Below are positions 1 to 64,000 of a DNA stretch of 64,000 nucleotides, piece by piece (positions within the stretch are counted from its first letter, which is position 1; each line of letters begins with the position of its first letter). Position numbers and translations under genes: made by a program. The notes under the pieces are model-generated. The model saw nothing but the letters and a program-made list of their open reading frames with translations. It did no database searches and was not told where the DNA came from. The DNA comes from Anaerolineae bacterium (GTDB lineage Bacteria > Chloroflexota > Anaerolineae > Promineifilales > Promineifilaceae): NCBI GenBank assembly GCA_020848035.1, contig JADLAX010000026.1:256180-320179 (forward strand). Reading direction: 5' to 3'.

Positions 1-2106
1 GGTAATGTCGATCGGCCCCAGGTTCAGCGTAGCGTTGCCCGTTTCCAGGAACGTTAAATCGAGCGAAGCCGATTGGCCCACCTGTACGCCGCCAAAATCC
101 AGCGGCCCCGGCGCAGCCGGCTGCGAAGCAAAACCAGGCACCGGCAGCGCCTGCACGTTACAGAGGAGGTTGTAGGTCACGGATGGGTGTGCCGGGTCAT
201 TGGTGCTTAAGGTCAACGTAGCCGTGCGGCTGCCCACCGCATTGGCATTGCAGCGCAGCTCCACGTCCTGGCTGCCGCTGGCGATGTTCAGCGGGAAGGC
301 CGTCAGCACCGAAAACTCACCCGGATTGGCCCCGCCAATCGTCGGATTGCTCACCGTCAGCGTGGTGTTGCCCGTTTCAAAAATGGTAAAGATGGTGTTA
401 ATCGGCACGCCGACGCTAGTGTTGCCCAGATTGATTGGCCCCGGCTGAACCGGCGTGGAGCCGTACCCGGCCACCGCCGGATCAGCTTCAAACGCGCCGA
501 TGTCGCAAGCCAGCCCTTTGGGGCGCGGATCGCCGCGCTGGTCTTCGCCATCAACCGGGCTGTCGGCGCAGGCGACATTATCGCCCGCGTCACGCGCCGG
601 GCTGCCGCTGCCCAGGGCCATCGTCAGCAGCGAGGCAATCGCCCCGCCGTTAAACGAAGGCGGCTCCAGCAGCGGATCGGCGCTGGAGATGCCAGCGCCA
701 CAGGCCGTGCCCGGATATTGCAGATTACTGCCGAGGTTTAACGGCAGCTCGGCGGCGCAGGTGCCACCGCTGCCGCTGCTGCCCTCGGCCACGATACTGT
801 TCACCAGCTTAACCTGGTGCAGGTGGTTGTTGTCATCGTTGAGGTTGTAAATCGCCCCGCCGGAGCTGGCAATGTTGCCCGAAATCGTCACGTTTTCTAG
901 CGTGGTGATGGTATCACGCGGATCGTCGTTGCTGTACAGTGCGCCCCCCAAACCGTCATCGGCGATGTTGGCAAAAAAGGAGCTGTTGGCCAGCTCAATG
1001 GTGCTGCCCAGGTTGAAGATCGCCCCACCATTACCCGCATTGGTAAAGTCACTGGAAGCGATGTTGGCGTTGAAGGCCGTTTTAGACAGGTTGAGCGTGG
1101 CGGTGTAGGCATAGATGGCCCCGCCACGGCCGTTTTTCACCCCGCCCGAAATGTTGCCGTTAAACGAGCTGTTGCTCACGTTGACCGGAATATCCCCGGT
1201 GAGATACAGCGCCCCACCCTGGCCGCCGGGCGTCAGGTTGCCGTTAAAGGCGGTGCGCTCGATGTTGACGCTGTTATCTTCGTAGTTGTTCTCGACAAAG
1301 ATGGCCCCACCGCCATGCCCCGTTTGTGTACCTTGGGCAATGTTGCCGGAGAAAACGCTGTCGGTAATGTTCATCGGCGACGTGGTGATGAGGGCAATTG
1401 CCCCGCCCTTTTGCTCGGCAATGTTGCCCGCAAAGTTGGTCCCGGCAATGTTGAGCGACTCTTTGGCACCGCCCTGGAAGTAAATGGCCCCACCCGCCTG
1501 CGCCGCCTTATTGCCTGCAAAATTGCTGCCCAAAATGTTCAGCTCCGCGCTGGTCAAAATTGCGCCGCCGCTCACGGTGGATTCATTGCCAATGAAGGAA
1601 GTACCCACCACATTAATTTTGCCGTCGCCATTGCCCTGAATGGCCCCGGCGAAGCCGCTTTTGCCATTTTGCAGGGTCAGGTTCATCACGGTAAAACGGC
1701 CGCTGCTGGACACAATAAAAAAGTTAGTCGCCTGGTTGCCATCCAGGATGATGGGGCCAGAAATCGTTATCTCCGAATTGATGTACATCGGCTCGACAAA
1801 CGTAATCGCCCCGGACACGCTGAACGTGATCGTGTCTGCGCCGTTCCCGGCGGGGCAGTCCGCCCCGTTGTTGAGGCTGACGGCCGCATTGTTGTTGGCC
1901 GCCTCCACCGCTTCGCGCAGCGAACATTGGCCGTCGTCAATGGAAGGATCATCAATTGGTTTGTCGGTCAGGGTATTAACGGTGAGGGAACCAGCCTGTA
2001 CCGGCTGGTCAGTGAACAAAAAGAGGACGGTTAAGAGGAGAACGGCCGTTCTCACCCCCCATTTCCCCCAAAAAGGCACAACAGCACGAACGTCTTGCCA
2101 ATACAT
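1..2106 (-). CDS. Secreted CSLREA-domain / right-handed beta-helix (GGAI-repeat) protein; C-terminal part runs off the window
   Basis: Not in the ORF track because it is open to position 1. I checked every plus-strand triplet in frame 1 from 1 to 2106 and found no TTA/CTA/TCA, so 702 codons are open on the minus strand. ATG at 2106..2104 with AAGGAG 7 nt upstream. Translation: MYWQDVRAVVPFWGKWGVRTAVLLLTVLFLF, DGQCSLREAVEAANNN, then GGAIYFQ/GGAIALI/GGAIFVE/GGALYLT/GGAIYAY/GGAIFNL/GGALYSN/GGAIYNL turns and Ig-like modules. Confidence 0.8.
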   Translation of the reverse strand, partial: MYWQDVRAVVPFWGKWGVRTAVLLLTVLFLFTDQPVQAGSLTVNTLTDKPIDDPSIDDGQCSLREAVEAANNNAAVSLNNGADCPAGNGADTITFSVSGAITFVEPMYINSEITISGPIILDGNQATNFFIVSSSGRFTVMNLTLQNGKSGFAGAIQGNGDGKINVVGTSFIGNESTVSGGAILTSAELNILGSNFAGNKAAQAGGAIYFQGGAKESLNIAGTNFAGNIAEQKGGAIALITTSPMNITDSVFSGNIAQGTQTGHGGGAIFVENNYEDNSVNIERTAFNGNLTPGGQGGALYLTGDIPVNVSNSSFNGNISGGVKNGRGGAIYAYTATLNLSKTAFNANIASSDFTNAGNGGAIFNLGSTIELANSSFFANIADDGLGGALYSNDDPRDTITTLENVTISGNIASSGGAIYNLNDDNNHLHQVKLVNSIVAEGSSGSGGTCAAELPLNLGSNLQYPGTACGAGISSADPLLEPPSFNGGAIASLLTMALGSGSPARDAGDNVACADSPVDGEDQRGDPRPKGLACDIGAFEADPAVAGYGSTPVQPGPINLGNTSVGVPINTIFTIFETGNTTLTVSNPTIGGANPGEFSVLTAFPLNIASGSQDVELRCNANAVGSRTATLTLSTNDPAHPSVTYNLLCNVQALPVPGFASQPAAPGPLDFGGVQVGQSASLDLTFLETGNATLNLGPIDIT

Positions 2107-2138
2107 ACAGTCGCTCCTTGGAATATTCAGGATTAAAA

Positions 2139-2171
2139 AGATTGGCCCAATCTGGCAGATTGGGCCAATCT
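2139..2171. repeat. Two adjacent copies of the 15-bp palindrome AGATTGG-N-CCAATCT
   Basis: AGATTGGCCCAATCT (2139..2153) and AGATTGGGCCAATCT (2157..2171), 33-65 nt upstream of the CSLREA gene start. Confidence 0.85.
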
Positions 2172-2226
2172 GAGAGAGTGGTTGAGGTGCAACACCTTAC
2201 AAAAGTGCGTCGCACCAGGCAGAAAT

Positions 2227-2255
2227 GAGGGTGGAGACGCACCTTCTCCACCCTC
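2227..2255 (-). terminator. Terminator-like hairpin after the lipoprotein gene
   Basis: GAGGGTGGAGA / TCTCCACCCTC 11-bp stem with a 7-nt loop. Only a weak T-tract on the minus strand. Confidence 0.4.
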
Positions 2256-2271
2256 TGGCTCCAGAGGTGGT

Positions 2272-2885: not shown

Positions 2886-5321
2886 ATGTCAACGCCGAAC
2901 ACCTTCCCCACCTGGCTCAAACGTCGCCGCAAAGCGCTGGACCTCACCCGTGAGGAGTTGGCCCGGCAGGCGCACTGTTCGGTCAGCACGATTCGCCGCC
3001 TGGAAGCGGGTGATTTACGCCCCTCCACCCAGCTTGTGGGTTTACTGGCCACCGCCCTCCATCTAGCGCCCAACGAAACAGAAGCGTTTGCCCTCTTTGC
3101 TCGCGGTTTTAGCCAGACACCGCCCACCCCAGACCTTTATTCACCAACGGGCAGCACGGCCGTTTCCCCCGCCAGGCCCGCCCCTGAACCCACCCAGGGC
3201 GACCTGCCCGCCCCGCTCACCAGCTTTGTCGGGCGCAAACAGGAATTAACGGCCGTTTGCGATCTACTCCACGAGCCCGATGTGCGCCTGCTTACCCTCA
3301 CCGGACCGCCCGGCACCGGTAAAACCCGGCTCAGCCTGGCCGCCGCCAATCAGCTGGCCACCGACCTGCCCCACGGCGCATTTTTTATCCCCCTCGCCCC
3401 CATCACCGACCCCGAGCTGGTGCTGGTCACCATCGGCCAGGTGCTGGGCGTCACCGAACCAACACGCGCCGGGGATGGCCTGGCCCCCTTGCAGCAGGCA
3501 CTCAAAGAGTTTTTGCGACCGCGCCGTCTGCTGCTGGTATTAGACAACTTCGAACAAGTTACCAGTGCCGCCGCCGTCGTCACCGACCTGCTGGCGGCCG
3601 CCCCTGGCCTGAAAATCCTGGTCACCAGCCGCGAACGGCTGCGCGTCTACGGCGAGCATGAATTCCCTGTGCCGCCGCTGCCCCTGCCCGACGTCAACCA
3701 TTTACCGGCCGGTACGGCCGTTACCTACCTTTCCCGCTACCCCTCCATTCGCCTTTTCCAGGAACGCGCCCGCGCCATCCGGCCCGATTTTCGCCTGACC
3801 GACGACAACATCGCCGACGTGGCCCGCATTTGCGCCTGGCTCGATGGCCTGCCGCTGGCCATCGAAATGGCCGCCGCCCAGGTAAAATGGCTTAGCCCCG
3901 CCCAGGTTTTTGCCCAGCTCAAAACCCGGCTCATTGCCCTCACTGGCGGCCCACGCGACCTGACGCCGCGTCAGCAGTCGCTCAGCGGGGCCATCGCCTG
4001 GAGCTACCACCTGCTGAGCGAACACGAACGCCTCCTCTTTGCCACAATGGGTGTTTTTGTCGGGGGCTGTGACGCCGCCGCCGCCAGCGCCGTCTGGCAG
4101 CAGGCCGCCGCCAGCCTGAACCACCCTACCAGCACGTTAAACGCCGCACCCAGCTTGCAGCTGCTGGCCGAAAAAAGCCTGCTTACGCACCACCCCCAGC
4201 CCGACGGCCAGCCGCGCTACGTCATGCTGGAGACGGTGCGCGAATATGCCCTGGAACAACTCAAAACCGATGGCTGGGAAACGGCCGTACGCCAGGCCCA
4301 CGCCACCTACTTTGCCAGCCAGACGGAAACCGTTTACCGCCACTTCCTGGCCACCAACAACCCGGTTACCTGGCTCAGCCTGCTGGATCGGGAATACCAC
4401 AACCTGCGCGCCGCCATTACCTGGGCCATGGAAACGGCCGTACAAACCCCCACCCCCACCACCATCCACTTTGCCCAGGATCTGGTGGAAAACGTGCAGC
4501 ACTTCTGGTACCTGCGCGGCCAGTTCCACGAAGCACGCCACTGGCTGGCTGAGGCGCTGGCCATCAGCCAGGAAACCAACATCATGCACGCCCTCCTGCT
4601 TAACCGCGTCGGCAAGTTTGCCCGGCTTCAGGGTGATCTGGCGCTGGTGCAAAGCTGTCACGAGCAGGCCCTGGCCATCCAGGAACACCTCGGTGACGAG
4701 CTGGGGCAGTGCCGCTCGCTGGAAAACCTGGCCATTCTGGCCGGAACCCAGGGCGATTACGGCCGTGCCCGCGTCCTGCTCGAACAAACCCTGGCAATTG
4801 ACCGGCGCAGCAACGGAGCCCGCCCCGTTGTCTCCACCCTCAACAACCTGGCCATTGTCCTGCGCCGCCTGGGTGATCCAGACGGCGCGGAGCGGCTGTA
4901 CCTGGAGGGTACCCAGCTGTGCCGCGAAACCAACAACCTCACCTCCCTCAGCTACACGCTGCACGGCCTGGGCGAAGTCAGTCTTGATCGCAGTCAGCCG
5001 GAGGCGGCCCTCACCTACCTGCGGGAGAGCATCACGTTGCGCCATCAATTGAGCGATCGGCCAGAGCTGGCCATTTCTTTGCGGACAATCGGCTTGGCCC
5101 ACATGCAGTTAGGCAATCCGGCCCTGGCAGCCCGTCTTTTTGCCGCTGGTGAACGGCTGCACCAGGAGCTGGGCATGAACCCGGCCGCCACCTACCGTGC
5201 CGAAACGGCCGTAAAAATCAACGAGATTTCTAACCTGCTGGGGGAAGCAGCATTTGCCCGCCTCTGGCAGGAAGGGGGCGAGCTATCACTGGACCAGGCC
5301 GTCAATCTGGCCCTGACATAA
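2886..5321 (+). CDS. STAND-type NTPase regulator: N-terminal XRE-type HTH + NB-ARC/AAA ATPase + C-terminal TPR array
   Basis: HTH LTREELARQAHCSVSTIRRLEAG. Walker A LTGPPGTGKTRL. Walker B LLLVLDNFEQV. C-terminal TPR-like repeats (GDLALVQSCHEQALAI, GDYGRARVLLEQTLAI, GDPDGAERLYLEG). Confidence 0.85.
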   Translation: MSTPNTFPTWLKRRRKALDLTREELARQAHCSVSTIRRLEAGDLRPSTQLVGLLATALHLAPNETEAFALFARGFSQTPPTPDLYSPTGSTAVSPARPAPEPTQGDLPAPLTSFVGRKQELTAVCDLLHEPDVRLLTLTGPPGTGKTRLSLAAANQLATDLPHGAFFIPLAPITDPELVLVTIGQVLGVTEPTRAGDGLAPLQQALKEFLRPRRLLLVLDNFEQVTSAAAVVTDLLAAAPGLKILVTSRERLRVYGEHEFPVPPLPLPDVNHLPAGTAVTYLSRYPSIRLFQERARAIRPDFRLTDDNIADVARICAWLDGLPLAIEMAAAQVKWLSPAQVFAQLKTRLIALTGGPRDLTPRQQSLSGAIAWSYHLLSEHERLLFATMGVFVGGCDAAAASAVWQQAAASLNHPTSTLNAAPSLQLLAEKSLLTHHPQPDGQPRYVMLETVREYALEQLKTDGWETAVRQAHATYFASQTETVYRHFLATNNPVTWLSLLDREYHNLRAAITWAMETAVQTPTPTTIHFAQDLVENVQHFWYLRGQFHEARHWLAEALAISQETNIMHALLLNRVGKFARLQGDLALVQSCHEQALAIQEHLGDELGQCRSLENLAILAGTQGDYGRARVLLEQTLAIDRRSNGARPVVSTLNNLAIVLRRLGDPDGAERLYLEGTQLCRETNNLTSLSYTLHGLGEVSLDRSQPEAALTYLRESITLRHQLSDRPELAISLRTIGLAHMQLGNPALAARLFAAGERLHQELGMNPAATYRAETAVKINEISNLLGEAAFARLWQEGGELSLDQAVNLALT

Positions 5322-9828: not shown

Positions 9829-10632
9829 TCAAGCAAGAACGGGGGGAGCCGTTTTTGCTGTGGTTTGTTGCAGGGCGGAAGGCAACGGCCGTTCCCCCAC
9901 CCAGCGCTCTACCATTTCTGTAAACAGCTCAGGAAATTCCCCGTTCCAGCCGTGATGGGCATTGGGGACGACGGCCGTTACGGCCGTCTCCACCACATGA
10001 AAGTCCGGCAAACTGTCCAAAACCAGCTTCGCTTCTTTTTCACCGGCCACCGCCAACAAGCGGGGCCGATGCCCTAACAGCGCCGCAGGCAGGCTGAAGG
10101 TCAGCACCTCGTCATAGGTGCGCAAAATCGTTGCCCGGCGCAGATTTTTGCTGTCGCGCCGGTAGAGCGGTTGGGCTTCGGGCGGCAGCTGCATCACCCG
10201 GCTCATCAGGGCAATGGTGAGGTTCCAGCCCATGGCCCGGCTCATCAGTTTGGGCATCAGTTTGTAGGCAAAGTTGTCGGGAAACGGCCGTATCGTCACC
10301 CCACTCACCAGGGTCGAGAGCACCCGCTCGGGATGGTTGGCCAGCAGCGTCAGCGCCGTGTAGCCGCCCAGCGACAGCCCCACCACGTGCGCCTGCCCAT
10401 TGGTGGCCCGGTCGCGAATGATGTGGGCGAGGGTAACGGCCGTTGCCGCAAACGACAGCCACTCCGCCCGGTAACTTTCCCCATTGCCCGGCAAATCCAC
10501 CGCCAGCACATGATACCGATCGTGCAGCGCTTCAACCTGCTCCTGCCACATCCAGCTGCTGACACCCAAACCGTGCAAAAACAAAATGGTGGGCTGACCT
10601 ACCTTACCGTATTCAAAAATTTTCAGATTCAT
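9829..10632 (-). CDS. Alpha/beta hydrolase
   Basis: ILFLHGLGVSS oxyanion region and nucleophile elbow HVVGLSLGG. The stop of the upstream regulator is 1 nt from its start. Confidence 0.85.
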   Translation of the reverse strand: MNLKIFEYGKVGQPTILFLHGLGVSSWMWQEQVEALHDRYHVLAVDLPGNGESYRAEWLSFAATAVTLAHIIRDRATNGQAHVVGLSLGGYTALTLLANHPERVLSTLVSGVTIRPFPDNFAYKLMPKLMSRAMGWNLTIALMSRVMQLPPEAQPLYRRDSKNLRRATILRTYDEVLTFSLPAALLGHRPRLLAVAGEKEAKLVLDSLPDFHVVETAVTAVVPNAHHGWNGEFPELFTEMVERWVGERPLPSALQQTTAKTAPPVLA

Positions 10633-11352: not shown

Positions 11353-11388
11353 AACAATGGTTTGCCCACTGGGTACCTGCTGGCTACA

Positions 11389-14300
11389 ATGCACCACATG
11401 TACCAGCAAAACATCATTGTGCGTACCAAGCTTGTCGCGCCCCGCCCGCCCCGGCAGACCCTGCCGCGGCCGCGCATTACGCAGCGCCTGCTCGATGCAC
11501 AAAACCACCGTCTGACCATCCTGCAGGCGGGCACGGGCTACGGTAAAAGCACCGCTTTGGCCAGCCTGGCCTCGCAGCCAGGGGAACCGCCGCTCCGTTT
11601 TGTCTGGTACCGGCTGGAGGCAGAAGATGGCGATGCCCAGCCGTTTTTGCTGCACCTGCTGCACGGCTTTGGCATTGCTCTGCCCAATTTATCGCATGCG
11701 CCGCTGGCGGCGCTGGAGGCGTGGGGCCAGCAGCGCCAGCCGCAAGAGCTGCCGGTGTGGACGGCCGTTACCGACAGCCTCATCAACGAGCTGGCCAATG
11801 AACTGGACCAGCCCACCTTTTTGGTGCTGGACGACGTGCACCTGATCAGCGACAGCAGCGAACCAATCCGCATTCTCGACCGCCTCATCGGCCTGGCCCC
11901 CCATAATTTGCACATCATTTTGTCCAGCCGCTACCCACTCACCCTGCCGTCCCTGGTGACCTGGCGCGTCAAGGGGCAGGTGCTGGAAATTGGTCAGGAG
12001 GAACTGGCCTTCACCCCTGCCGAAATTGACGCCCTCTTCCGCAATTATTACGGCCACGCCCTGTCGCTGGAGCAGGCCACGATGGTGATCAATCGCATCG
12101 AGGGCTGGCCGATTGCCCTGCACCTCATCTGGCAGCGCTTGCAGCGGGACGGCGGTGCGTCGCTGGCCCAGGCGCTGACGCAGCTGTCGGGCACGGCCAG
12201 CGATCTGTTCCAATTCCTGGCGCAGGAGGTGCTGAACCAGCAGCCAGAGGACATCCAGGCATTTTTGCGGGAAACGGCCGTTCTTCGTGAAATGACCACC
12301 CCGCTCTGCAACCAGCTGCGCCGCCGCCAGGACAGCCAGCAGCTGCTGCGCTATCTGCTGGAAAAAGGGCTGTTTGTGGTCAACCTGGGCAACGGCTACG
12401 TGCGCTATCATCACCTCTTTCGCGACCTGCTGCTGAGCCAGCTCGCGCCCGACGAGGCGCAAAATTTGCACGAGCAGGCCGCCACCATCTACCAGCAGCA
12501 GGGGGAAGACGAGGAAGCGATTTTTCATTTGCTGGCGGCGGAGGCGTTTGAGCGAACGGCCGTCCTGCTCACCACCCTCGGCCGTCGGCTGGTGCGCGTG
12601 GGTCGGTTGGACACGCTGGCAGGCTGGATCGGCCGACTGCCGCCCGACATTTTGGCCCACTACCCCGCCCTGCTCGGCTACCTGGGCGACATCGCCCGAC
12701 TGCACTCCCGCTTCGACGAGGCGCTGGGCTGGTACCAGCAGGCCGAACAGCGCAGCCGCACCAAAGGCGACCGCCGCGGCATCGGCCAGGCGCTGCGCGG
12801 CCAGGCGCGGGTTTACCTGGACACGGTGAACCCGACCAAAGGCGAGGAGCTGCTGCAAGAAGCGCTGCGCCTCTCCGACGGGCAGGAAGATCGCGAAAGC
12901 CAGGCGCGGCTGCTGGAGCTGTTGGCCGAAAATCTGCTGAACCAGGGACGGCTGGGTGAGGCAGAAAATTACCAGGCTAAAGCCCGCGCCCTGCGCGAAC
13001 AGGGGCATGGCCCGGCCGAACTGCCGGTGCGGATGCTGCTGCGCACGGGACGGCTGGCCGAAGCGCGAGAAATCTTGGAAGCCCAGGCGCAGCAGGAAGA
13101 GCAGGCCCCCGTCTTGCGCCCCCGGGCCCACCGCGAAACGCTGCTGCTGCTGTCGCTCATTTTGGCCTACCAGGGGGAAGCGGATATGGCCCTGGCCACG
13201 GCCGTTTCCGGTACGCAGCGCGGTCGGGCCTTAAACTCGGAATTTATTACGGCCGTTGGCTACTGCCGCCAGGGGCACGCCTGGATGCTGCACAAAAACG
13301 AACCTGGCTACGAGCAAGCCCGCCAATCGTTCCAGCAAGGCATCGCCATGAGCGACCAGATGGAGGTGCCGCGCCTCAAGATCGAGGCATTTTGGGGGCT
13401 GTGCCAGGCATACGGCTTCCCCGGCGACCACGAGACGGCGCTAACCTACGCGCGCGAGGGCATCACCCTGGCCCGGCTGCACGGCGATGAGTGGGTAGAG
13501 ATGAGCATTCGCCTGACGATGGGTGCCACCTACACGCTGCTGGGCATGGTGCAGGAGGCCAACGAATGGCTGGCCCAGGCGGTTACCGGCTTCCGCGATT
13601 GCAGCGATATTTTTGGCGAAACGGCCGCACGCCTCTGGCGCTGCCTGCTGTGGCACAAAACCGATGACAACACCCGCCTCAAGCGCGATCTGGACGATCT
13701 GCTGCCGCTGATCAGCCGCCATCAGTACGAATTTTTGTTCCAGCGGCGCACCCTGCTGGGGCCGCCTGATCCACGCGCCCTGGTGCCCCTGCTGCTTTTT
13801 GCCCGCGAGCAAAACATTCATGCCGCCACCGCCGAGGCGATCCTGGCCCAGCTGGGCTTGGCCCAGGTGGAGCTGCATCCTGGCTTCCAGCTGCGCATCC
13901 AGACGCTGGGGCCGTTTCGCATCTGGCAGGGCAGCGAGGAGCTGCCCAGCCGGGCGTGGCGGCGCAAGAAGGCGCGCCAGCTGCTCCAGCTGCTGGTCAC
14001 CTATCGCGGCACGCTGCTGCACCGCGACCAGATTGCCGAGATGCTCTGGCCGGAGCTGGACCCAGACGGCGCGGTGCGCGACTTTAAGATAGCGTTCAGC
14101 GCCATGTGTTCGGTGCTGGAGCCGGACCGCAAGCGCAATGCGCCGTCGGCGTTTGTGGTGCGCGACGGCAGCCGCTACGGCCTGCGCGACGAGGCGGACA
14201 TCTGGCTGGACGCGGCCGAATTTGAGAAGCTGCTTGACCAGGGGGATCATCTTTACCAGAAGGATGTGGTGCGGGCGGTAGGGGGGTATGAAACGGCCGT

Positions 14301-14643
14301 TACCCTCTACGAAGGCGACTACCTGCAAGCCTACCCCTACGAAACCTGGTCTCACGAGGAGCGTGAACGGCTGCGCGCCCGCTTTTTGCACGCCGCCGAT
14401 CGGCTGGCCCAATGGCTGGCGGACCAGGCCGCCTGGGAGCGGGTTGTCACGCTCAGCCAGACCATTTTGCAGCAGGACGACTGCTGGGAAAACGCCTACC
14501 GCCTGCTGATGCTGGCCCACATCCAGCTGGGCAACCGGGTCCAGGCGCTGCGCACCTACCAGCGGTGCGAAACCATCCTGCAAGCCGGTCTGGGCGTAAC
14601 GCCCGCGCCCGCCACCGTCCAGCTCTACGAAACCATCCGCTAA
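11389..14643 (+). CDS. MalT-like STAND ATPase fused to a SARP-type winged-helix + BTAD transcriptional activator domain
   Basis: Walker A LQAGTGYGKSTAL. Walker B FLVLDDVHLI. TPR-like middle region. C-terminus LGPFRIWQGSEELP..RRKKARQLLQLL (OmpR/SARP wHTH), then BTAD (YEGDYLQAYPYETWSHEERERLRARF..ALRTYQRCETIL). Start ambiguous: TTG 11362, ATG 11389 or ATG 11398. Confidence 0.85.
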   Translation: MHHMYQQNIIVRTKLVAPRPPRQTLPRPRITQRLLDAQNHRLTILQAGTGYGKSTALASLASQPGEPPLRFVWYRLEAEDGDAQPFLLHLLHGFGIALPNLSHAPLAALEAWGQQRQPQELPVWTAVTDSLINELANELDQPTFLVLDDVHLISDSSEPIRILDRLIGLAPHNLHIILSSRYPLTLPSLVTWRVKGQVLEIGQEELAFTPAEIDALFRNYYGHALSLEQATMVINRIEGWPIALHLIWQRLQRDGGASLAQALTQLSGTASDLFQFLAQEVLNQQPEDIQAFLRETAVLREMTTPLCNQLRRRQDSQQLLRYLLEKGLFVVNLGNGYVRYHHLFRDLLLSQLAPDEAQNLHEQAATIYQQQGEDEEAIFHLLAAEAFERTAVLLTTLGRRLVRVGRLDTLAGWIGRLPPDILAHYPALLGYLGDIARLHSRFDEALGWYQQAEQRSRTKGDRRGIGQALRGQARVYLDTVNPTKGEELLQEALRLSDGQEDRESQARLLELLAENLLNQGRLGEAENYQAKARALREQGHGPAELPVRMLLRTGRLAEAREILEAQAQQEEQAPVLRPRAHRETLLLLSLILAYQGEADMALATAVSGTQRGRALNSEFITAVGYCRQGHAWMLHKNEPGYEQARQSFQQGIAMSDQMEVPRLKIEAFWGLCQAYGFPGDHETALTYAREGITLARLHGDEWVEMSIRLTMGATYTLLGMVQEANEWLAQAVTGFRDCSDIFGETAARLWRCLLWHKTDDNTRLKRDLDDLLPLISRHQYEFLFQRRTLLGPPDPRALVPLLLFAREQNIHAATAEAILAQLGLAQVELHPGFQLRIQTLGPFRIWQGSEELPSRAWRRKKARQLLQLLVTYRGTLLHRDQIAEMLWPELDPDGAVRDFKIAFSAMCSVLEPDRKRNAPSAFVVRDGSRYGLRDEADIWLDAAEFEKLLDQGDHLYQKDVVRAVGGYETAVTLYEGDYLQAYPYETWSHEERERLRARFLHAADRLAQWLADQAAWERVVTLSQTILQQDDCWENAYRLLMLAHIQLGNRVQALRTYQRCETILQAGLGVTPAPATVQLYETIR

Positions 14644-14646
14644 ACC

Positions 14647-14746
14647 CTCGTTCCACGCTCTGCGTGGAATGCCGTTGGCGACGCTCCGCGTCGCAAGGGA
14701 CGCAGAGCGTCCTGCCTTCATTCCCACGCGGAGCGTAGGAACGAGC
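14647..14746. repeat. MITE-like element made of four consecutive mini-hairpins closed by an outer stem
   Basis: TTCCACGC-TCT-GCGTGGAA, GCGACGC-TCC-GCGTCGC, GGACGC-AGA-GCGTCC, TTCCCACGC-GGA-GCGTAGGAA. Outer arms CTCGTTCC (14648..) / GGAACGAG (..14745). Confidence 0.8.
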
Positions 14747-14771
14747 AGAATGGGATGCCCAGCAGATAGGT

Positions 14772-14838
14772 GTCATACCCGCGCAGGCGGGTATCCATCT
14801 TCTTAACCCGGATGGATTCCCGCTTTCGCGGGAATGAC
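14772..14838. repeat. Second structured palindromic element (GTCAT..ATGAC type)
   Basis: GTCAT-ACCCGC-GCAG-GCGGGT-ATCCAT..ATGGAT-TCCCGC-TTTC-GCGGGA-ATGAC. Confidence 0.75.
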
Positions 14839-14882
14839 AATGAAAATTGTGGTCTTGCCCCTCTAAAGTTATAATCACCGCC

Positions 14883-15860
14883 ATGAATGTGAAATATCCC
14901 GAAAGAAAGCTCCTGGCCCACCTGCCCACACCTCTGGAAAAACTGGAACGCCTCAGTCGTCACCTGGGCGGACCGGATATTTACATGAAACGCGACGACC
15001 AGACCGGACTGGCGACCGGCGGCAACAAAACCCGCAAGCTGGAGTTCCTGGTGGCCGATGCGCTGGCCCAGGGCTGCGACCATCTGGTTACCACCGGTGC
15101 CCCCCAAAGCAACCACTGCCGACAAACGGCCGCTGCCGCCGCCCATTTTGGTCTGGGCTGCAGCCTGGTGTTACGCGGCAAGGCACCCTCTCAGCTGCAA
15201 GGCAATCTCCTGCTAGACAAACTGCTAGGAGCACACCTCTACTGGACCGGCGACAATCCTCGTCATGAAGTCATGGCCGAAGTGGCCAATGAGCAGCGGG
15301 TGATGGGGCACAGGCCCTACATCATCCCGTTGGGCGGCTCTAACGTCATGGGGGCCACCAGCTATGTCATGGCCATGCAAGAACTGATGGCCCAACTGGC
15401 CGCCACCAGTGTCAACATTGACTTTATCGTCTTTGCCAGCAGCAGCGGCGGCACCCAGGCGGGCATCGTGCTGGGGGCCGAGGTGTACGGCTTTCGTGGG
15501 CACGTGCTGGGCATCAGCGTGGACCATCCCGCCGAGGATTTGCAGATGCAGGTGTCGGCGCTGGCCACGGCCACGGCGACGCACCTGGGCATCAGCAACG
15601 TTTCCATTGCCAACCGGGTGGAGGTGAACGACGACTACCTGGGCGATGGCTACGCGATGGTGGGCGAGACGGAGCGGGAAGCGATTCAGATGGTAGCCCA
15701 GCTGGAGGGCATTTTGCTCGATCCCGTGTACACCGGGCGGGCCATGGGCGGCCTGATTGATTTGATTCGCTGGGGGGCGTTTACCCGGGGGCAAAGCGTG
15801 CTGTTCTGGCACACTGGCGGGGCAGCGGCGCTGCCTGCGTTTGTAGATAAGCTTCTCTAA
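14883..15860 (+). CDS. PLP-dependent D-cysteine desulfhydrase / ACC deaminase family protein
   Basis: Family hallmark TGGNKTRKLEFLVADA. The ORF track start 14847 lies inside a repeat element, so I prefer ATG 14883 (MNVKYPER). Confidence 0.85.
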   Translation: MNVKYPERKLLAHLPTPLEKLERLSRHLGGPDIYMKRDDQTGLATGGNKTRKLEFLVADALAQGCDHLVTTGAPQSNHCRQTAAAAAHFGLGCSLVLRGKAPSQLQGNLLLDKLLGAHLYWTGDNPRHEVMAEVANEQRVMGHRPYIIPLGGSNVMGATSYVMAMQELMAQLAATSVNIDFIVFASSSGGTQAGIVLGAEVYGFRGHVLGISVDHPAEDLQMQVSALATATATHLGISNVSIANRVEVNDDYLGDGYAMVGETEREAIQMVAQLEGILLDPVYTGRAMGGLIDLIRWGAFTRGQSVLFWHTGGAAALPAFVDKLL

Positions 15861-15907
15861 TCTTTCAACGCAGACGAGATGAAAAATTTCATCTCCCGAG
15901 GTTAAAA

Positions 15908-17272: not shown

Positions 17273-17405
17273 GCAACGATACGGAAGATGGGCGTTGAGG
17301 AGATATTTCCCCCAGGGTAAAGTACTCCCTTCTGGCTTACCTGTGGTGCTGCCTGCGTTTGTTGATGAGCTGCCGCCTGCAGGCCGTGTCCATAAATCAA
17401 ACCTT

Positions 17406-17888: not shown

Positions 17889-18007
17889 TCTTTGTGGTAT
17901 CAGGTTTTGAATTCGGCTTTGACAGCGCCCCAATTTCTGCGTTTTTCTTGTCTAAACCTGCACCTCGCTTGGTACGTCTATGCTTGAGCAAGAGGAGAAA
18001 TCAACAG

Positions 18008-45975: not shown

Positions 45976-48900
45976 ATGTCTCGTCAATTTTCCACTTTCG
46001 CCCGATTTCTGCTTCTGGTTTTGGCGGTAACGACCGTTCTCACCCTCACCGTGCACGCCAGCCCCACCAGCCAGGACACACCACGCCCGCGCTTCGGTCT
46101 GGAAGATATTCCCTACCAGGCAGGTGCGGAAAACAGTGCACCAAACGAGTCGGCCTTGAGCGTGACCGCACCAAACGTCTTGCTGCCCTGGAGCAAAGTG
46201 GCGTTTCAATCGCTGCGCAACGGCAGTTGGGACATTTTTGTGGGCAATGATGACGGGACGGGGCAAACGGCCGTTGTCGGCAGTGGCAACGCTGAGATTC
46301 AACCCCACCTCAACCGGGGCAATACCAAAATTGTCTACGCCTCCAACAGCGGCGGCGACTATGAGATTTACACCGCCAACTTCAATGGTTCCGGCCAGAC
46401 CGCCCTCACCAGCAACACCACCAGCGACGGCAATCCATCCTGGTCGCCTGACGGCAGCAAAATCGTTTTCGAAGCGTACCGCAATGGCGAAGCCGACATC
46501 TACGTGATGAACGCCAACGGCACCAATCAGGTCCGCCTCACCACCCACTCGGACTTCGACGGCATGCCCAGTTGGTCGCCCGACGGCAGCAAAATTGCCT
46601 TCGTCAGCCGACGCACTGGTGGCTACCGCATTTACGTGATGAACGCCGACGGCTCCAGCCAGACGCAGCTCTCCAACCAGCCCTACAGCCTTCGCCCGCA
46701 GTGGTCGCCCGACGGCACCCAGATCGCCTACGATGCCGACGGCGATGGCGACGGCTGGCAAGACCTCTGGCGCATGAACGCCGATGGCAGCAGCCAGACC
46801 CTTGTCGTCAACCCCGGCGGCCAGACCGATGCCTGGACCTCTAGCTGGTCCCCAGACGGCAGCCGCATTGTTTACACGCTCATCTCCTTTGTCTACTACC
46901 AGGGCAACTGGTACTGGACCACCGCCTACCCTGATGCCTGGAGTCCCAACTTGGGCACCACCCGCCTCAGCAGCAACGGCACCGACTGGGATGCCACCTG
47001 GCAAACCAGCGATAGTTCATCCCCTGCGCTGACGCTCAACTCGATCCCGCAATACTCGCGTAATCCATTAACCGTAAGCTGGGTGGGCACAGATGTGGGC
47101 AGCGCCGGAATCAAAAGTTACGATGTTCAATACCGCTTAGCTGGGGCCACGAACTGGAGCAGTTTGTCCGCAGGAACGACGGCAACTACGGCCAATTTCA
47201 ACGGCTCCGTAGGCCAAACCTACCAATTCAGGGTCCGGGCCACAGACAAAGCTTTCAACCGCAGTAACTGGCAGTACAACTTTCAAACAACCCTGTATAG
47301 TTGGCTGATTAGCGGTAACATCACCGACAATCGCGGAAACCCGATCACCAATGCCACAGTTGCAACTACACCTGCAGCTTTCAAAACATCATCAAGCGAT
47401 TTCCATGGCTTCTTCCAAAACTTTGTAGGAGGAACACCAAACAATTATTCTGCAAGCTTGTTCAAAAGCGGTTATAGTGCCTTGCCTGCCACAGCCTACA
47501 TGTCAAGTGAGGATGCTGTTGTAAGAATGGTCCTCCCTCCCCTCGACAATATCTTAATAAACTGGGGATTTGAGGATGGTCCCTTTGGTCCATCCAACTG
47601 GCAAAGCTTAGGGCTGTTAACTGAGCGCATCACTGCAGAAAAACATACTGGCTCTTATTCTGCTTTTATGGGTGAGGCAACCACACCACAACCAGTTAAT
47701 GTATCGACTACCTCAGGGGCCTCGTTTTCGCCCAACATTACCAGTACAGAAGACGGCAAAATACATATAATTTGGCTTGAAGATGACCTTACTGGAATTT
47801 GCCGGGTAATGTATCGGAATTTAGACACGAATGGCTCTGTTTCAGCAGTCGTAGTTGTTTCTGGTTCCGGAGATCAGTGTTACTACAATTCCATAATTGC
47901 AGATGCAAATGGAGTTGTACACGTTTCATGGTTACAGTTAATTGGGGGTAATTATCACGTTTATTACAGACAACGTGATGGTATCGGCAATTGGAGCTCT
48001 ATTGAAGATGTTTCTTTGGTTAACTTTGGAGCTGCGCAGCCCCATTTAAAAATTCGTGATACAGGAGAAGTTTATTTGGTTTGGAATGATAAACAAAATA
48101 ATGAAGAGATGTTATTTTTTTCAGAGAGAGAGGGAGTATCTAATTGGAGTACCCCACTGAACATCTCTCCCGGTTTATCTTCATCGAAGACTTTTGATAT
48201 AGACATAGATCATCTCGGAGGCATCCATGTGCTGTGGAGAGAGTTCGATTATTTGCATTATTACGAAGCTTCAATATTAGCTACCTATCGCTCAAGCGAT
48301 GGTACCTGGTCTGCTCCAACAATCGTGGCTGGACCAGATGGGCATAAAAGCGTGCCCGATTTTACTATTGATAGTACAGGCAAAGTTCACGCAGTCTGGT
48401 CAAATATCGATCCTGCTTCAGAGTACCAGATCTATTATTCATCTCGAAATTTAGATGGGACTTGGACAGCGCCTGCACAACTTTCAAACGATGGGTTCGG
48501 CAATGGGATGGCTTTAATTACGGTAAATATTGACGGGAAACTTTACGTGCTGTGGCAAGGAGATAGTGGATTCCGTTATATTATAAGAAGCAGCACCGGA
48601 ACGTGGGGAACAATTCAAACAATACCTTCAATAAACAACCCACCCGTAATTTTCGAAGTCGATCAAACAGGCACACTTCATTTAGCCTGGAGGGATCAAG
48701 ATAGTAATATGGGAAACCTTATTTACGCATTTCAAAGTAGTGATAATATCTGGTCAACACCATTGAATATTTCCGGTGTTGACTCCGAAGTAGGCGTTAC
48801 TAGTTCCTTCCTTGCCTCTGATGGTTCGATAAGTTTTGCCTGGTCTAAGTCCAGTGAAGAATTGGATTACATTGGAGAAATATTCTCGGTTCGGGCTAAA

Positions 48901-49635
48901 CCGGGCACCTACACTCTTTCTCAAACTGTAAATATACCAGGCACAATGATAAACCCAACATTGTCATTATTTGCCAAACCTGCAGCTAGTGGAAGCGAAA
49001 ATGATCCGATCCTCAGTGTAAATATCGATAACGGAACTTCGAACCAAAGCTTTTTATTAATGAATGTTAACGATCCGAATTGGTCACACTACTGGATTGA
49101 TCTTTCACCGTGGCTGGGTGAATCCATTCAAATTAACGTCTCTTATGAAGTAGCGTCTACAGCACCATTTGAAGCAACAAGCTCAACACCGTTAAATGGA
49201 TTTTACTTAGATGAAATTACATTGGGCTCCTCATTTACCGACGTTTGGATTCAAATTGATGGTTCTAACGAAGCACTGCGTGGGGAAGAAGTTACTTACA
49301 CGATTTCCTATGGAAATAGAAGCAGTATAGATGCTGATGATGTTTCTATTACGGCCGTTCTCCCCCCACAGTTAACTTTCTTAAGCGCCAGTTTGCCACC
49401 TTCCAGCCAATCGCCAGGCTTGACCTGGAACATTGGTGACTTACCTGCCAACAGCGGCCCGATTTCTTTCACGATTACCGCCAGGGTGAAAAATACCGCT
49501 CAAGGGTTGAGTAATGCCACGTCCACTGTTAATATCACCACATCGTCTACAGAGTTAGAGGTGTTTAACAATGTGGGCCAAAGCGACCTGTTAATTGGCA
49601 CCAGATTGTACACACCCTTGATTATTAAGAATTAG
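45976..49635 (+). CDS. Large secreted multidomain protein: TolB-like PD40 beta-propeller repeats + FN3/Ig-like modules + BNR/sialidase-like repeat region + C-terminal DUF11 domain
   Basis: GGAGGA RBS, signal peptide. PD40 repeats (PSWSPDGSKIVF, PSWSPDGSKIAF, PQWSPDGTQIAY, SSWSPDGSRIVY). Recurring G.hHhhW strands (VHVSWLQ, VYLVWND, IHVLWRE, VHAVWSN, LYVLWQG, LHLAWRD). DUF11-like VTYTISYGN..ITAVLPPQLTF..TWNIGDL. Confidence 0.85.
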   Translation: MSRQFSTFARFLLLVLAVTTVLTLTVHASPTSQDTPRPRFGLEDIPYQAGAENSAPNESALSVTAPNVLLPWSKVAFQSLRNGSWDIFVGNDDGTGQTAVVGSGNAEIQPHLNRGNTKIVYASNSGGDYEIYTANFNGSGQTALTSNTTSDGNPSWSPDGSKIVFEAYRNGEADIYVMNANGTNQVRLTTHSDFDGMPSWSPDGSKIAFVSRRTGGYRIYVMNADGSSQTQLSNQPYSLRPQWSPDGTQIAYDADGDGDGWQDLWRMNADGSSQTLVVNPGGQTDAWTSSWSPDGSRIVYTLISFVYYQGNWYWTTAYPDAWSPNLGTTRLSSNGTDWDATWQTSDSSSPALTLNSIPQYSRNPLTVSWVGTDVGSAGIKSYDVQYRLAGATNWSSLSAGTTATTANFNGSVGQTYQFRVRATDKAFNRSNWQYNFQTTLYSWLISGNITDNRGNPITNATVATTPAAFKTSSSDFHGFFQNFVGGTPNNYSASLFKSGYSALPATAYMSSEDAVVRMVLPPLDNILINWGFEDGPFGPSNWQSLGLLTERITAEKHTGSYSAFMGEATTPQPVNVSTTSGASFSPNITSTEDGKIHIIWLEDDLTGICRVMYRNLDTNGSVSAVVVVSGSGDQCYYNSIIADANGVVHVSWLQLIGGNYHVYYRQRDGIGNWSSIEDVSLVNFGAAQPHLKIRDTGEVYLVWNDKQNNEEMLFFSEREGVSNWSTPLNISPGLSSSKTFDIDIDHLGGIHVLWREFDYLHYYEASILATYRSSDGTWSAPTIVAGPDGHKSVPDFTIDSTGKVHAVWSNIDPASEYQIYYSSRNLDGTWTAPAQLSNDGFGNGMALITVNIDGKLYVLWQGDSGFRYIIRSSTGTWGTIQTIPSINNPPVIFEVDQTGTLHLAWRDQDSNMGNLIYAFQSSDNIWSTPLNISGVDSEVGVTSSFLASDGSISFAWSKSSEELDYIGEIFSVRAKPGTYTLSQTVNIPGTMINPTLSLFAKPAASGSENDPILSVNIDNGTSNQSFLLMNVNDPNWSHYWIDLSPWLGESIQINVSYEVASTAPFEATSSTPLNGFYLDEITLGSSFTDVWIQIDGSNEALRGEEVTYTISYGNRSSIDADDVSITAVLPPQLTFLSASLPPSSQSPGLTWNIGDLPANSGPISFTITARVKNTAQGLSNATSTVNITTSSTELEVFNNVGQSDLLIGTRLYTPLIIKN

Positions 49636-61865: not shown

Positions 61866-61917
61866 TCGTAATCGGCCCTGAAGCTGTCGTTGAGACTTCA
61901 AGTCATGGGAGATAAAG

Positions 61918-63516
61918 ATGAATCAAAATGATGTTCCCCACGTCATCGGGAGCGGTAGAACCGCGCTTGGTATTGAATTTGGCTCCACCCGCATCAAAGC
62001 AGTATTAATTGGCCCGGATCATGCGCCCCTCGCCTCGGGCAGCTACGACTGGGAAAACCGGTACGAAAATGGCGTCTGGACCTACAGCCTGGACGACGTG
62101 TGGACGGGCCTGCAAGCCAGTTACCGCAATCTGCGCCAGGACGTGCAAACACGGTACGGCACCCCGCTGCAAACGATTGGGGCCATTGGTTTTAGCGGCA
62201 TGATGCACGGGTACATGGTGTTTGCGGAAGACGGCCGTCTCCTCACCCCCTTCCGTACCTGGCGCAACACCATTACCGGGCAGGCCGCCGCCGAACTGAC
62301 CGGGCTGTTCCAGTTCAACATTCCCCAGCGCTGGAGCATCGCCCACCTGTACCAGGCCATTTTGAACCAGGAGCCACACATCAACGACATCACCTTCCTG
62401 ACCACCCTGGCCGGGTACGTGCACTGGCAGCTAACCGGCACAAAAGTGCTGGGCATTGGCGAAGCGTCCGGCGTCTTTCCCATCAACAGCCAAACCAACG
62501 ATTATGATGCAGGCATGATTGCCCAATTTAACCAGGCGCTGGCGGCCGATATTCCGTGGCAGCTTCAAGACATTTTGCCCACCGTTTTGCTGGCCGGGCA
62601 GCCCGCAGGCAGCCTCACCGAAGCTGGTGCCAGACTGCTGGACCCGTCGGGTGAACTGCAAGCGGGCATTCCCTTCTGCCCGCCGGAAGGGGACGCCGGT
62701 ACCGGCATGGTGGCTACCAACAGCGTGGCCCCGCGCACCGGCAACGTCTCCGCCGGCACTTCTGTTTTTGCCATGATTGTTCTGGAAAAAGCGCTCTCCC
62801 AGCTGTACCCCGAAATTGACATGGTGACAACCCCCACGGGCAAGCCGGTGGCCATGGTGCACAGCAACAACTGCACCTCGGACCTCAATGCCTGGGTGGG
62901 CCTGTTCCGCGAATTTACCGACGCGCTGGGCGTGGCCGTTGACCAGGCCCAGCTGTTTGAAATGCTGTACCAGAAAGCGCTCACCGGGGATGCCGATGGC
63001 GGCGGACTGCTGGTGTATAACTATTTTTCCGGCGAACACATTACCCATCTGGCGGAAGGACGGCCGTTATTTGTGCGCACTCCCGAAAGCAAATTTACCC
63101 TGGCCAACTTCATGCGCGTGCACCTGTTTTCGGCGCTGGGCGCGCTGAAGATTGGGCTGGACATCTTGTTTGAGCAGGAAAAGGTGCAGATTGACCAGGT
63201 GTTGGGGCATGGCGGCTTCTTCAAAACGAAGGGCGTGGGTCAAAAAATGATGGCCGCCGCCATGAACGTCCCGGTGTCGGTGATGGACACGGCGGGTGAA
63301 GGTGGTGCCTGGGGCATCGCCCTGCTGGCCGCCTACCGGCTCAATCGGACCAACAATGAACTGCTGGAAACGTACCTGGCCAACAACGTCTTTGCCGGGG
63401 AAAGCGGCTCCACCGTCGCGCCAGACCCCGCCGATGTGGCCGGTTTTGCCACGTTTATGGAACGGTACAAAAAAGGGCTGGTGATTGAAGAAACGGCCGT
63501 TGCCGCCCTACACTAA
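61918..63516 (+). CDS. FGGY-family carbohydrate kinase (ribulokinase/xylulokinase-like)
   Basis: GGAG RBS. N-terminal [14 protein letters not shown]-terminal GHGGFFKT. Adjacent to araD. Confidence 0.85.
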
Positions 63517-63520
63517 CGGA

Positions 63521-63535
63521 AGATTGGACCAATCT
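63521..63535. repeat. Fourth copy of AGATTGG-N-CCAATCT
   Basis: AGATTGGACCAATCT between the FGGY kinase gene and araD. Confidence 0.8.
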
Positions 63536-63553
63536 GGAGAGCGAGAGAAACCC

Positions 63554-64000
63554 ATGCTAGAAAAACTGCGCCAAATCGTCTGCGAACTGCATGCCGAACT
63601 GCCCCACAACAACCTGGTCGCCTGGACCAGCGGCAACATCAGCGCCCGCGACCCGGATTCCAACCTGGTGGTGATCAAACCCAGCGGCATTAAATTCCCG
63701 GACCTGCGGCCAGAAAACATGGTGGTGGTCAACATTGATGGCCAAATCGTGGAAGGCAGCTACAAAGCCTCTTCCGACACAGCCTCACACTGCTACATTT
63801 ACCGCCACATGCCCAACGTGAACGGCATCGTGCATACCCACTCACGCTTTGCCACGGCATTTGCCACACACGGCCGTTCCATTCCCTGCATCACCACCGC
63901 CATGGGCGACGAATTTGGCGGCGACATTCCCTGCGGCGGTTTTGCCCTGATTGGCGGCCAGGAAATTGGCCAGATTGTGGTGGAGACCCTGCAAGGCAGC
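63554..64000 (+). CDS. araD: L-ribulose-5-phosphate 4-epimerase, 3' end outside the window
   Basis: Not in the track (open to the window end). My translation: MLEKLRQIVCELHAELPHNNLVAWTSGNISARDPDSNLVVIKPSGIKF..SSDTASHCYIYRHMPNVNGIVHTHSRFATAFA.. Confidence 0.85.
   Translation, partial: MLEKLRQIVCELHAELPHNNLVAWTSGNISARDPDSNLVVIKPSGIKFPDLRPENMVVVNIDGQIVEGSYKASSDTASHCYIYRHMPNVNGIVHTHSRFATAFATHGRSIPCITTAMGDEFGGDIPCGGFALIGGQEIGQIVVETLQGS

Follow-up and report, generated by a model that had tools for sequence, protein, structure and literature searches.

HIP1, the highly iterated palindrome (HIP) of cyanobacteria, was recognised some three decades ago, and what it does is still not settled. The octamer (GCGATCGC) occurs at 300-2700 copies per Mb (Elhai, PMC4390886), which is 15-300-fold over expectation (PMC5861425, PMC4390886); the palindromic hexamer inside it is targeted by a methyltransferase and shows no enrichment in other contexts (PMC4390886, PMC5861425), and its occurrence along the chromosome shows periods of 10-90 kb (PMC5861425). 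Alternate cyanobacterial HIPs include TCGATCGA, GGGATCCC, CAGGCCTG, GCsGC and rCCGGy (PMC4390886, PMC5861425). Since all described HIPs are cyanobacterial, comparative arguments are confounded by a single phylogeny. Here we analyze a 64,000-base stretch of DNA from an Anaerolineae bacterium of the Chloroflexota (contig JADLAX010000026.1; hereafter the window), together with related genomes and phages. An earlier sequence-only reading of the window had picked out the self-reverse-complementary octamer ACGGCCGT (75% G+C) and likened it to HIP1. The octamer is best read as a new HIP-class element built on a CGGCCG core that is probably methylated.

The window, at 57.7% G+C, contains 106 exact copies of ACGGCCGT (1656 per Mb, or 1.66 per kb), in close agreement with the 105 or so, one per 600 bp, that had been counted by eye. 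It far outnumbers every other 8-mer: behind it rank the shifted words that overlap it, the most frequent unrelated 8-mer is found 33 times, and among palindromic octamers the second is CCAGCTGG, found 14 times. Dinucleotide-preserving shuffles (n=100) led us to expect 1.5 copies (sd 1.3, max 5), and Markov models of orders 0, 1, 2, 3 and 4 gave 1.6, 1.4, 2.5, 5.2 and 11.8; at orders 5 and 6 the expectation climbs to 42 and 90, approaching the observed count only because these models contain the motif's own sub-words. Genes were called with a codon-usage model (50 genes, ~90% coding), and the 95 coding copies compare with 10.7 +/- 3.0 (max 19) after synonymous-codon shuffling and 2.1 after shuffling of codon order. 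Dividing observed by expected copies (O/E) gives 70 against dinucleotide shuffles, 20 against the third-order Markov model and 9 against the synonymous-codon shuffle. No unrelated G+C-rich 8-mer was comparably enriched in the Markov comparison, so neither of the outcomes that the sequence-only reading had named as fatal to its claim, a count near expectation or a similar enrichment of many G+C-rich words, was observed.

Spacing of the copies in the window is roughly exponential, with a mean of 598 bp and a coefficient of variation of 1.1. The longest copy-free stretch measures 3.9 kb (14301..18206), and since gaps above 3 kb are only marginally in excess of exponential expectation we make no strong claim for HIP-poor stretches as islands.

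Genes of both strands and spacers carry the motif, as had been noticed from the letters alone, and they do so at equal density (1.64 per kb coding vs 1.81 non-coding); 94-95 copies lie inside genes (89%, in frame) and 12 are intergenic. The commonest reading is Thr-Ala-Val (TAV; frame ACG-GCC-GTn, 54 copies), followed by [NHDY]GR (nAC-GGC-CGT, 30 copies) and xRPx (nnA-CGG-CCG-T, 10 copies), which matches the earlier impression of Thr-Ala-Val in first place with Asn-Gly-Arg and Arg-Pro also present. Of 64 possible codon spellings of TAV, the single one provided by ACGGCCGT accounts for 54/55 such tripeptides in the window proteins, and 30/34 [NHDY]GR tripeptides are spelled by the motif although CGT is a rare arginine codon (13%). 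Neither ACG (29%) nor CGT is a favoured codon; GCC and GGC are the favoured codons for alanine and glycine. TAV (55 observed vs 8.8 expected, 6.2-fold) and NGR (20 vs 3.5, 5.7-fold) are the two most over-represented tripeptides, an excess which indicates that the motif reshapes the encoded proteome.

Two regulator genes illustrate this use of frames. A gene for an HTH/TPR regulator-like protein (2886..5321, + strand) has seven copies: the six TAV readings already reported (in the contexts STAVS, LTAVC, GTAVT, ETAVR, ETAVQ and ETAVK) and a seventh, overlooked at the time, which at 4759 is read nAC-GGC-CGT as YGR. The MalT/SARP-like regulator gene at 11362..14643 (+ strand) has six copies, all in the Thr-Ala-Val frame, as first described.

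Flanking bases are symmetric around the 106 sites and weakly biased, with A at -1 in 59% and T at +1 in 58%, G at -4/-3 in 60/50% and C at +3/+4 in 53/64%, giving a 16-bp consensus GGaA-ACGGCCGT-TtCC. The bias toward a longer palindrome is thus real, though weaker than the sequence-only reading had put it: AACGGCCGTT is present at 34/106 sites, including 2041-2050 and 5371-5380 where it was first noted, and GAAACGGCCGTTTC occurs once. With such weak information in its flanks, ACGGCCGT is not part of a longer repeat. Where the motif is read in the TAV frame its flanks occupy third codon positions, at which A and T are otherwise disfavoured, so the flank bias is also one at the level of DNA. Two copies stand 9 bp apart (GACGGCCGTTACGGCCGTC, 9971..9987, with starts at 9971 and 9980), in the adjacent arrangement noted earlier.

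One-base variants of the octamer are unevenly distributed in the window: each variant at an interior position is found 0-3 times and each at positions 1 and 8 is found 1-11 times, and given this concentration at the first and last positions the half-sites ACGGCCGN are enriched 3-8 fold. We extended these counts to pools of 128 kb from hosts, 180 kb from phages and 108 kb from relatives without the motif, here termed HIP-less. In the hosts, O/E is 78 for ACGGCCGT, 5.0 for the half-site ACGGCCGA and 2.8 for ACGGCCGC; the other CGGCCG contexts (NCGGCCGN) have an O/E of 0.3-1.5, versus 1.1-1.9 in HIP-less relatives, and GGCC outside CGGCCG shows no enrichment. What is in excess is CGGCCG as a core, with A...T preferred on its outer sides and GGaA...TtCC, less strongly, around it. 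The same outer-position pattern of one-base deviations was reported by Elhai for HIP1 and its CGATCG core (PMC4390886).

The distribution of the motif among relatives was followed through an E1-dehydrogenase fusion protein encoded at 32928-35372. The closest proteins come from metagenome-assembled genomes labelled Candidatus Promineifilaceae, uncultured Anaerolineae or Chloroflexota (Promineifilaceae being placed in the Chloroflexota, class Ardenticatenia, order Promineifilales), and an identical protein is encoded on the 3.8-kb Logan contig SRR11294021. At the four related loci L002, L003, L001 and L004, whose E1 proteins are 88%, 86%, 84% and 70% identical, ACGGCCGT is the top 8-mer in each case, at 1.69, 1.41, 2.18 and 2.01 per kb, respectively. 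It falls to about zero in L005 (a Promineifilum sp., 68% identity) and in L006, L011, L019, L040 and L072; the pooled HIP-less relatives, of similar G+C, contain 0 copies in their 108 kb, and orthologue loci from other phyla show background only (0-4 copies, <=0.18 per kb). The motif is restricted to one Promineifilaceae-like lineage.

Within this lineage the copies are conserved well beyond their surroundings. The window is syntenic with L002 and L003 across ~16 kb, at 78-85% nucleotide identity. Sites of the window are retained at 16/20 positions in L002, 14/17 in L003, 7/8 in L001 and 4/5 in L004, when ordinary aligned 8-mers are identical in 28%, 19%, 17% and 17% of cases; overall, retention is 78-88% vs 17-28%. 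Where the amino acid is conserved in L002, codons inside sites are identical in 29/30 cases, as compared with 0.11-0.77 for the same codons elsewhere, and CGT is kept at 3/4 positions inside sites vs 0.11 outside. Differences in presence or absence between the window and L001-L005 are all gap-free and lie 1-5 substitutions away from a site, the substituted counterparts including TCGGCCGT, ACGGCCGA and ACGGCCGC. Between the syntenic blocks on either side, L002 and L003 lack a segment of ~8.7 kb that the window has (15861-24573), so that it represents an insertion or deletion; its 16 motif copies mean that it is not foreign DNA of recent arrival, or else that its donor had the motif as well.

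Comparison of 80 E1 orthologues shows, site by site, how copies came about. The copy at 34577..34584 (+ strand) lies over an LRP tripeptide conserved in 75/80 orthologues and reflects synonymous codon choice only. At 33328..33335 (+ strand) an amino acid was replaced: the ancestral DGS, found in 27 orthologues including all HIP-less Chloroflexota, has become NGR in the window and L004 and DGR in L001, while L002 and L003 keep DGT/DGS and have no copy. The copy at 35086..35093 (+ strand) sits at a variable protein position, which reads NGR in the window and in L001-L004 and HGM, PGV, HGT, NGN or NGV in HIP-less relatives. In the spacer upstream of the gene (32754..32927), copies at 32764, 32796 and 32880 form conserved islands in otherwise diverged sequence when aligned with L001-L003. 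One of these is the center of a perfect 24-bp palindrome (GGTAGGAAACGGCCGTTTCCTACC, 32872..32895), exactly where it had been seen by eye; L002 retains the palindromy via compensatory changes (GGGTGGG...CCCACCC), and as RNA it would form a hairpin of -17.7 kcal/mol (z = -3.2). Copies arise in place by point substitution, synonymous where the protein allows and otherwise replacing tolerant residues, and once made they stay at the same position across genomes. Directly upstream of the three-copy spacer, at ~32164-32753, is a small DUF433/DUF5615 gene pair (as called in L081), likely a toxin-antitoxin system.

The likeness to HIP1 is therefore extensive, as the sequence-only reading had supposed from palindromy, density and dispersal: both are G+C-rich palindromic octamers found in genes and spacers, 1656 per Mb lies within the HIP1 range, and both are lineage-restricted, spread by substitution, conserved beyond background, and surrounded by one-base variants concentrated at positions 1 and 8. 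As for HIP1, the internal hexamer (here CGGCCG) is unenriched outside the octamer in hosts. The differences are the CGGCCG core, outer bases that are A/T and not G/C, and the lack of an internal GATC, so that there is no Dam-type component. The host is not cyanobacterial, and we treat phylum as the described range of HIPs and not as a defining feature. None of the alternate HIPs, all of which are cyanobacterial, is identical to ACGGCCGT or has a CGGCCG core; they resemble it in being lineage-specific replacement motifs.

Phages carry the motif too, which extends the comparison beyond what has been shown for HIP1. With the 16-mer GGAAACGGCCGTTTCC as query, matches were obtained in 31 stretches of IMG/VR viral contigs, of which 22 carry ACGGCCGT at 1-3.5 per kb over a range of 45-61% G+C; in 21 of the 22 it heads the list of 8-mers, and phages at 45-50% G+C have it at 1-2.3 per kb. 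The several loci checked with PHROGs are genuine phages, encoding the large terminase, portal, head protease, DnaB helicase, primase and endolysin. The 180 kb of pooled phage DNA contain 360 copies (O/E 95), a density equal to or above that of the hosts, and every CGGCCG context is raised there, unlike in hosts. One phage contig, L270/L271, has 202 copies of CGGCCG in 20.8 kb (9.7 per kb); GCCGGC (O/E 3.8-4.6) and CCGGCCGG (20 copies) are likewise enriched in it, which hints that more than one palindrome may be favoured.

Among the motif-rich phage loci, L105 and L108 each have a gene for a beta-class amino-methyltransferase (PF01555, with motif IV T-S-P-P-Y); the two enzymes are homologous, at ~34% identity. 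When their alignment was run against viral sequences, five real homologues emerged, each on a motif-rich contig, and two of these contigs had escaped motif-based retrieval. In a metagenome scan, six matches at 71-78% identity were all motif-rich (1.2-3.8 per kb), and 74 matches at <=30% identity were essentially all motif-free. A protein search brought homologues grading from 36% up to 100% identity; contigs obtained for ten of them were all phage-like.

For 20 subfamily loci, with members at 41-100% identity, CGGCCG was ranked among the 64 palindromic hexamers by first-order Markov O/E: it is the most over-represented in 18 (O/E 3.7-20), second in L263 and tenth in L269. The hexamer ranks first in 1/38 loci with homologues of <=30% identity and 3/55 phage loci found via an unrelated 5-methylcytosine (m5C) enzyme, giving 18/20 vs 4/93 controls (Fisher p = 4e-15, the related phages not being independent samples), and in 1/52 HIP-less cellular loci. 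Among six further viral loci it is first in three (32-39% identity) and second in one; in L278 and L283 (28% identity) it is neither. One beta-class methyltransferase subfamily is statistically associated with core enrichment in phages.

The octamer context of the core varies within the subfamily. ACGGCCGT dominates around CGGCCG in L270/271 (54% identity), L273 (57%; 44 copies in 18.8 kb, at 50% G+C) and L275 (54%), and L272 has GCGGCCGT plus ACGGCCGT. The phage-like contig L265 (41%; CAYMGE010000059.1 of NCBI assembly GCA_964389925.1) has instead TCGGCCGA, with 25 copies in 12.9 kb and no ACGGCCGT, as does L266 (5 copies in 2.0 kb, again no ACGGCCGT); L263, L264, L267/268 and L274 show no octamer preference around the core. 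TCGGCCGA is an alternate HIP with the same CGGCCG core, and the pair TCGGCCGA/ACGGCCGT repeats the relationship of the cyanobacterial TCGATCGA/GCGATCGC, which share a core and differ outside it. Phages with related methyltransferases thus have the same core flanked by A..T, T..A, G..T or nothing in particular. The flanks do not sort by how similar the enzymes are, which suggests that the core is set by the enzyme and the flanks by some other factor.

N4-cytosine enzymes of this kind are recognised by S-P-P-Y/F, N6-adenine enzymes by D/N-P-P-Y. N4-cytosine chemistry also suits CGGCCG, which has no adenine, and from its motif and its co-occurrence with the core the subfamily enzyme is predicted to be an N4-cytosine methyltransferase acting on CGGCCG. 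Its nearest solved structures are M.MboIIA, M.RsrI and M.PvuII; no NCBIfam equivalog exists for it, and one member is labelled cytosine-N4-specific by JGI. The sequence-only reading had pointed to methylation of either CGGCCG or GGCC, a link that is borne out in part; the first is the hexamer tracked by the phage subfamily, and the second is not enriched outside CGGCCG. A link between phage methyltransferase and CGGCCG parallels that between HIP1 and CGATCG methyltransferases (PMC4390886), although the candidate enzyme here is beta-class, phage-borne and predicted to be N4-cytosine-specific, and that of HIP1 is of the m5C DmtC/M.Ssp6803I type; some N4-methylcytosine (m4C) CGATCG enzymes were noted by Elhai (PMC4390886).

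Other methyltransferase genes occur in the same phages. The gene for the CGGCCG-associated enzyme is usually accompanied, and often adjoined, by one for an adenine-type methyltransferase (D12/Dam or MT-A70), as at L270 10001-11498, L108 72-995, L263 7496-8050, L264 6268-6846, L274 9178-9774 and L275 2972-3649; the pair lies near DnaB helicase or terminase genes. Motif-rich L105 also encodes a small m5C methyltransferase (9850-10545), which was considered as the cognate enzyme and rejected as a family-level link because its 62 relatives on other viral contigs are surrounded by DNA free of the motif. The start of this short (231-aa) C5-cytosine methyltransferase gene is overlapped by a 155-aa open reading frame (9398-9865; ...RKWRLDFAWP...VAVETHG...), so that L105 9398-10545 (= L113 9549-10693) has a dcm/vsr-like arrangement; the 155-aa product, which by eye looked Vsr/DUF559-like, has no Pfam match at E 0.01.

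With moderate confidence, we read ACGGCCGT as the HIP of one Promineifilaceae-like lineage and its phages, with a bias of repair or recombination at a methylated core as the likeliest mechanism. We infer that the CGGCCG core is a target of cytosine methylation in the hosts, because the presence of the phage S-P-P-Y (N4-cytosine type) enzyme tracks core enrichment, that a second, host-specific factor adds the outer flank preference, and that methylation is causal for accumulation of the motif. Methylated sites would bias repair or recombination in their own favour, by a ratchet or by methylation-directed biased gene conversion: bare CGGCCG would pass through half-sites to full sites, full sites would be protected, and density would reach saturation at about one copy per 600 bp. 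The motif would build up in whatever DNA replicates in these cells, that of phages too.

A precedent of sorts is found in E. coli, where Dcm/Vsr very-short-patch repair raises the frequency of the methyltransferase target CCWGG. The likeness lies in a methyltransferase target made more frequent by biased repair; that effect, however, is well under 2-fold and depletes T-for-C variants, whereas ACGGCCGT is enriched ~80-fold with no depletion of interior variants, and no Vsr gene was found in the host DNA scanned. We accordingly dropped a Vsr-type signature (depletion of variants one C-to-T change away), interior variants being at expectation in host and phage DNA.

Several points weigh against a methylation-driven bias. 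Interior variants are at the first-order Markov expectation and not below it (over 128 kb from hosts and 180 kb from phages, small samples for subtle effects), so a signature of Vsr-type T:G repair is missing. A motif scan and tblastn of the 128 kb of host DNA (window and L001-L004) found no genes for a methyltransferase or for Vsr- or MutH-like proteins, which the sequence-only reading had thought might accompany the motif. The evidence on the methyltransferase is a correlation, drawn from phages that are related to one another and hence not independent; the subfamily loci L269 and L278 (53% identity) show no CGGCCG enrichment, and causality could be reversed, if CGGCCG-rich phages need the enzyme against host restriction. 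Elhai's G-meC rule does not fit an outer A or T, and methyl-directed mismatch repair has been established in some gamma-proteobacteria and nowhere else (PMC4390886). Lastly, Xu et al. take positional conservation as selection and not neutral replenishment (PMC5861425), two processes which our present conservation data do not separate.

The alternative that survives best, which we consider possible if on balance unlikely, is that ACGGCCGT is a self-recognition tag for incoming DNA, comparable to uptake sequences or Chi. Uptake or recombination would prefer the methylated motif, or a nuclease would spare it; molecular drive or selection would spread it, and phages would mimic the tag, carry their own methyltransferase and arrive pre-marked. 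Uptake sequences are found at a density near 1 per kb, are frame-biased and clade-specific, originate by point mutation and leave over-represented tripeptides in the proteome. The DNA uptake sequence (DUS) of Neisseria and the uptake signal sequence (USS) of Pasteurellaceae share all of these properties with ACGGCCGT, and its conservation, use of tolerant positions and one-off variants match them as well. Methylated HIP1 lifts transformation >100-fold in Synechococcus 7002, where Chi-like behaviour has been suggested (10.1101/2024.09.10.611283), and HIP1 abundance correlates with pilus and competence genes (10.64898/2026.06.24.733823). Mimicry predicts both a phage density at least equal to that of the host and a phage methyltransferase that tracks the core, and integrases are found in some of the related methyltransferase-bearing phage contigs.

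The same comparison also brings out where a tag of this kind fits less well. DUS and USS are 9-12 nt long and non-palindromic, with a known receptor or machinery and no methylation, whereas ACGGCCGT is a perfect palindrome with symmetric flanks. Chi, although likewise an over-represented short motif marking self DNA for recombination machinery, is asymmetric, co-oriented with replication, few-fold enriched and not methylation-dependent; ACGGCCGT, being palindromic, cannot be oriented. No competence, pilus or RecBCD/AddAB genes were recognisable among the scanned window proteins, though no search aimed at them was made, and the host filaments are uncultured and lack an experimental system. Self-tagging alone also leaves the depletion of non-HIP CGGCCG contexts in hosts unexplained.

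We consider it improbable that ACGGCCGT is the binding site of an abundant dimeric nucleoid-associated or chromosome-organising protein, kept for chromosome architecture as Xu et al. propose for HIP1. The symmetric 16-bp consensus is typical of a dimeric binding site; positions are conserved, synonymous and spacer sites included, and the 32872-32895 palindrome has been maintained by compensatory changes; and HIP1 is periodic along chromosomes (PMC5861425). Yet phages of 30-57 kb have the motif at equal or higher density, capsid and terminase genes included, and neither the co-occurring methyltransferase subfamily nor the varied flanks around one core would be explained.

An artefact of composition or codon usage, in a G+C-rich genome with favoured codons ACG/GCC/GTN or GGC/CGT, has hardly any probability left: a G+C of 57.7%, the favoured GCC and GGC and the order 5-6 Markov expectations speak for it, but 106 copies stand against 1.5-12 expected and 95 in genes against 10.7 after the synonymous shuffle, ACG and CGT are not favoured, spacers are equally dense, relatives of similar G+C have none in 108 kb, and phages at 45-50% G+C are rich in the motif. 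ACGGCCGT acts as DNA, and not as a peptide, an RNA motif or a mobile element, so that selection for Thr-Ala-Val or Asn-Gly-Arg peptides, attractive only for the rank of these tripeptides, is negated by the use of three reading frames plus spacers and of one spelling in 64, just as a short inserting repeat of the mobile, repetitive extragenic palindromic (REP) or miniature inverted-repeat transposable element (MITE) type is by gap-free differences between genomes, by the 89% of copies that are genic and in frame, and by an Rfam scan of the window that gave zero family matches; both are negligible as explanations.

Some other features of the window deserve mention. A gene for a 1219-aa TolB-like beta-propeller/DUF11 protein (45976..49635, + strand) has only two copies of the motif (0.55 per kb) and, for a gene this long, scores very low on codon usage; it may have arrived more recently. 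Strong intergenic hairpins whose arms are tandem 6-7-nt repeats occur just 3' of stop codons, at 22066-22133, 19698-19754, 39635-39692, 11272-11350, 44591-44639, 35421-35463, 43666-43725 and 2139-2171. A hairpin of (GGAGATT)x4 and its complement has an RNA minimum free energy of -54.6 kcal/mol (z = -10.6), and one of (CGTGATG)x3 reaches -44.5 kcal/mol (z = -8.2). A like hairpin, built on another repeat unit, lies behind the E1 orthologue in L004 (12427-12483), and L002 and L005 yielded no tandem-arm hairpins of >=18 nt. These elements resemble terminators and bring to mind the short tandemly repeated repetitive (STRR) heptamers of cyanobacteria.

A search of the available literature turned up no account of ACGGCCGT as a motif iterated in genomes, in line with what the sequence-only reading had believed, and none of iterated palindromes in Chloroflexi; a search on CGGCCG m4C enzymes returned nothing relevant. 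What is new here is an HIP-class element in a non-cyanobacterial phylum, its carriage by phages, and a methyltransferase subfamily that tracks its core and includes phages with the alternate TCGGCCGA. A bolder generalization, which we regard as doubtful, is that iterated palindromes are a general outcome of a methyltransferase-linked drive that temperate phages can carry: a phage-borne N4-cytosine CGGCCG enzyme would mark phage and lysogen DNA, methylation-sensitive repair, recombination or defence would favour the marked sites, and host factors would set the outer bases (ACGGCCGT vs TCGGCCGA). If this were true, the motif would be an epigenetic self-tag around which hosts and phages co-evolve.

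An independent case in the Chloroflexota, with a different sequence and a different candidate class of methyltransferase, means that the HIP phenomenon recurs, and it enables cross-phylum tests of a methylation-directed repair ratchet, of a self-tag for uptake or recombination, and of a role in chromosome architecture. The phage data are discriminating in this respect, in that whatever process maintains the motif also operates on phages or is exploited by them, and goes together with one methyltransferase subfamily around a common hexamer core. The distortion of the proteome by TAV and NGR matters for annotation and for models of protein evolution, and in practical terms the motif offers a strong signature for binning and for phage-host assignment among the Promineifilaceae filaments of activated sludge.

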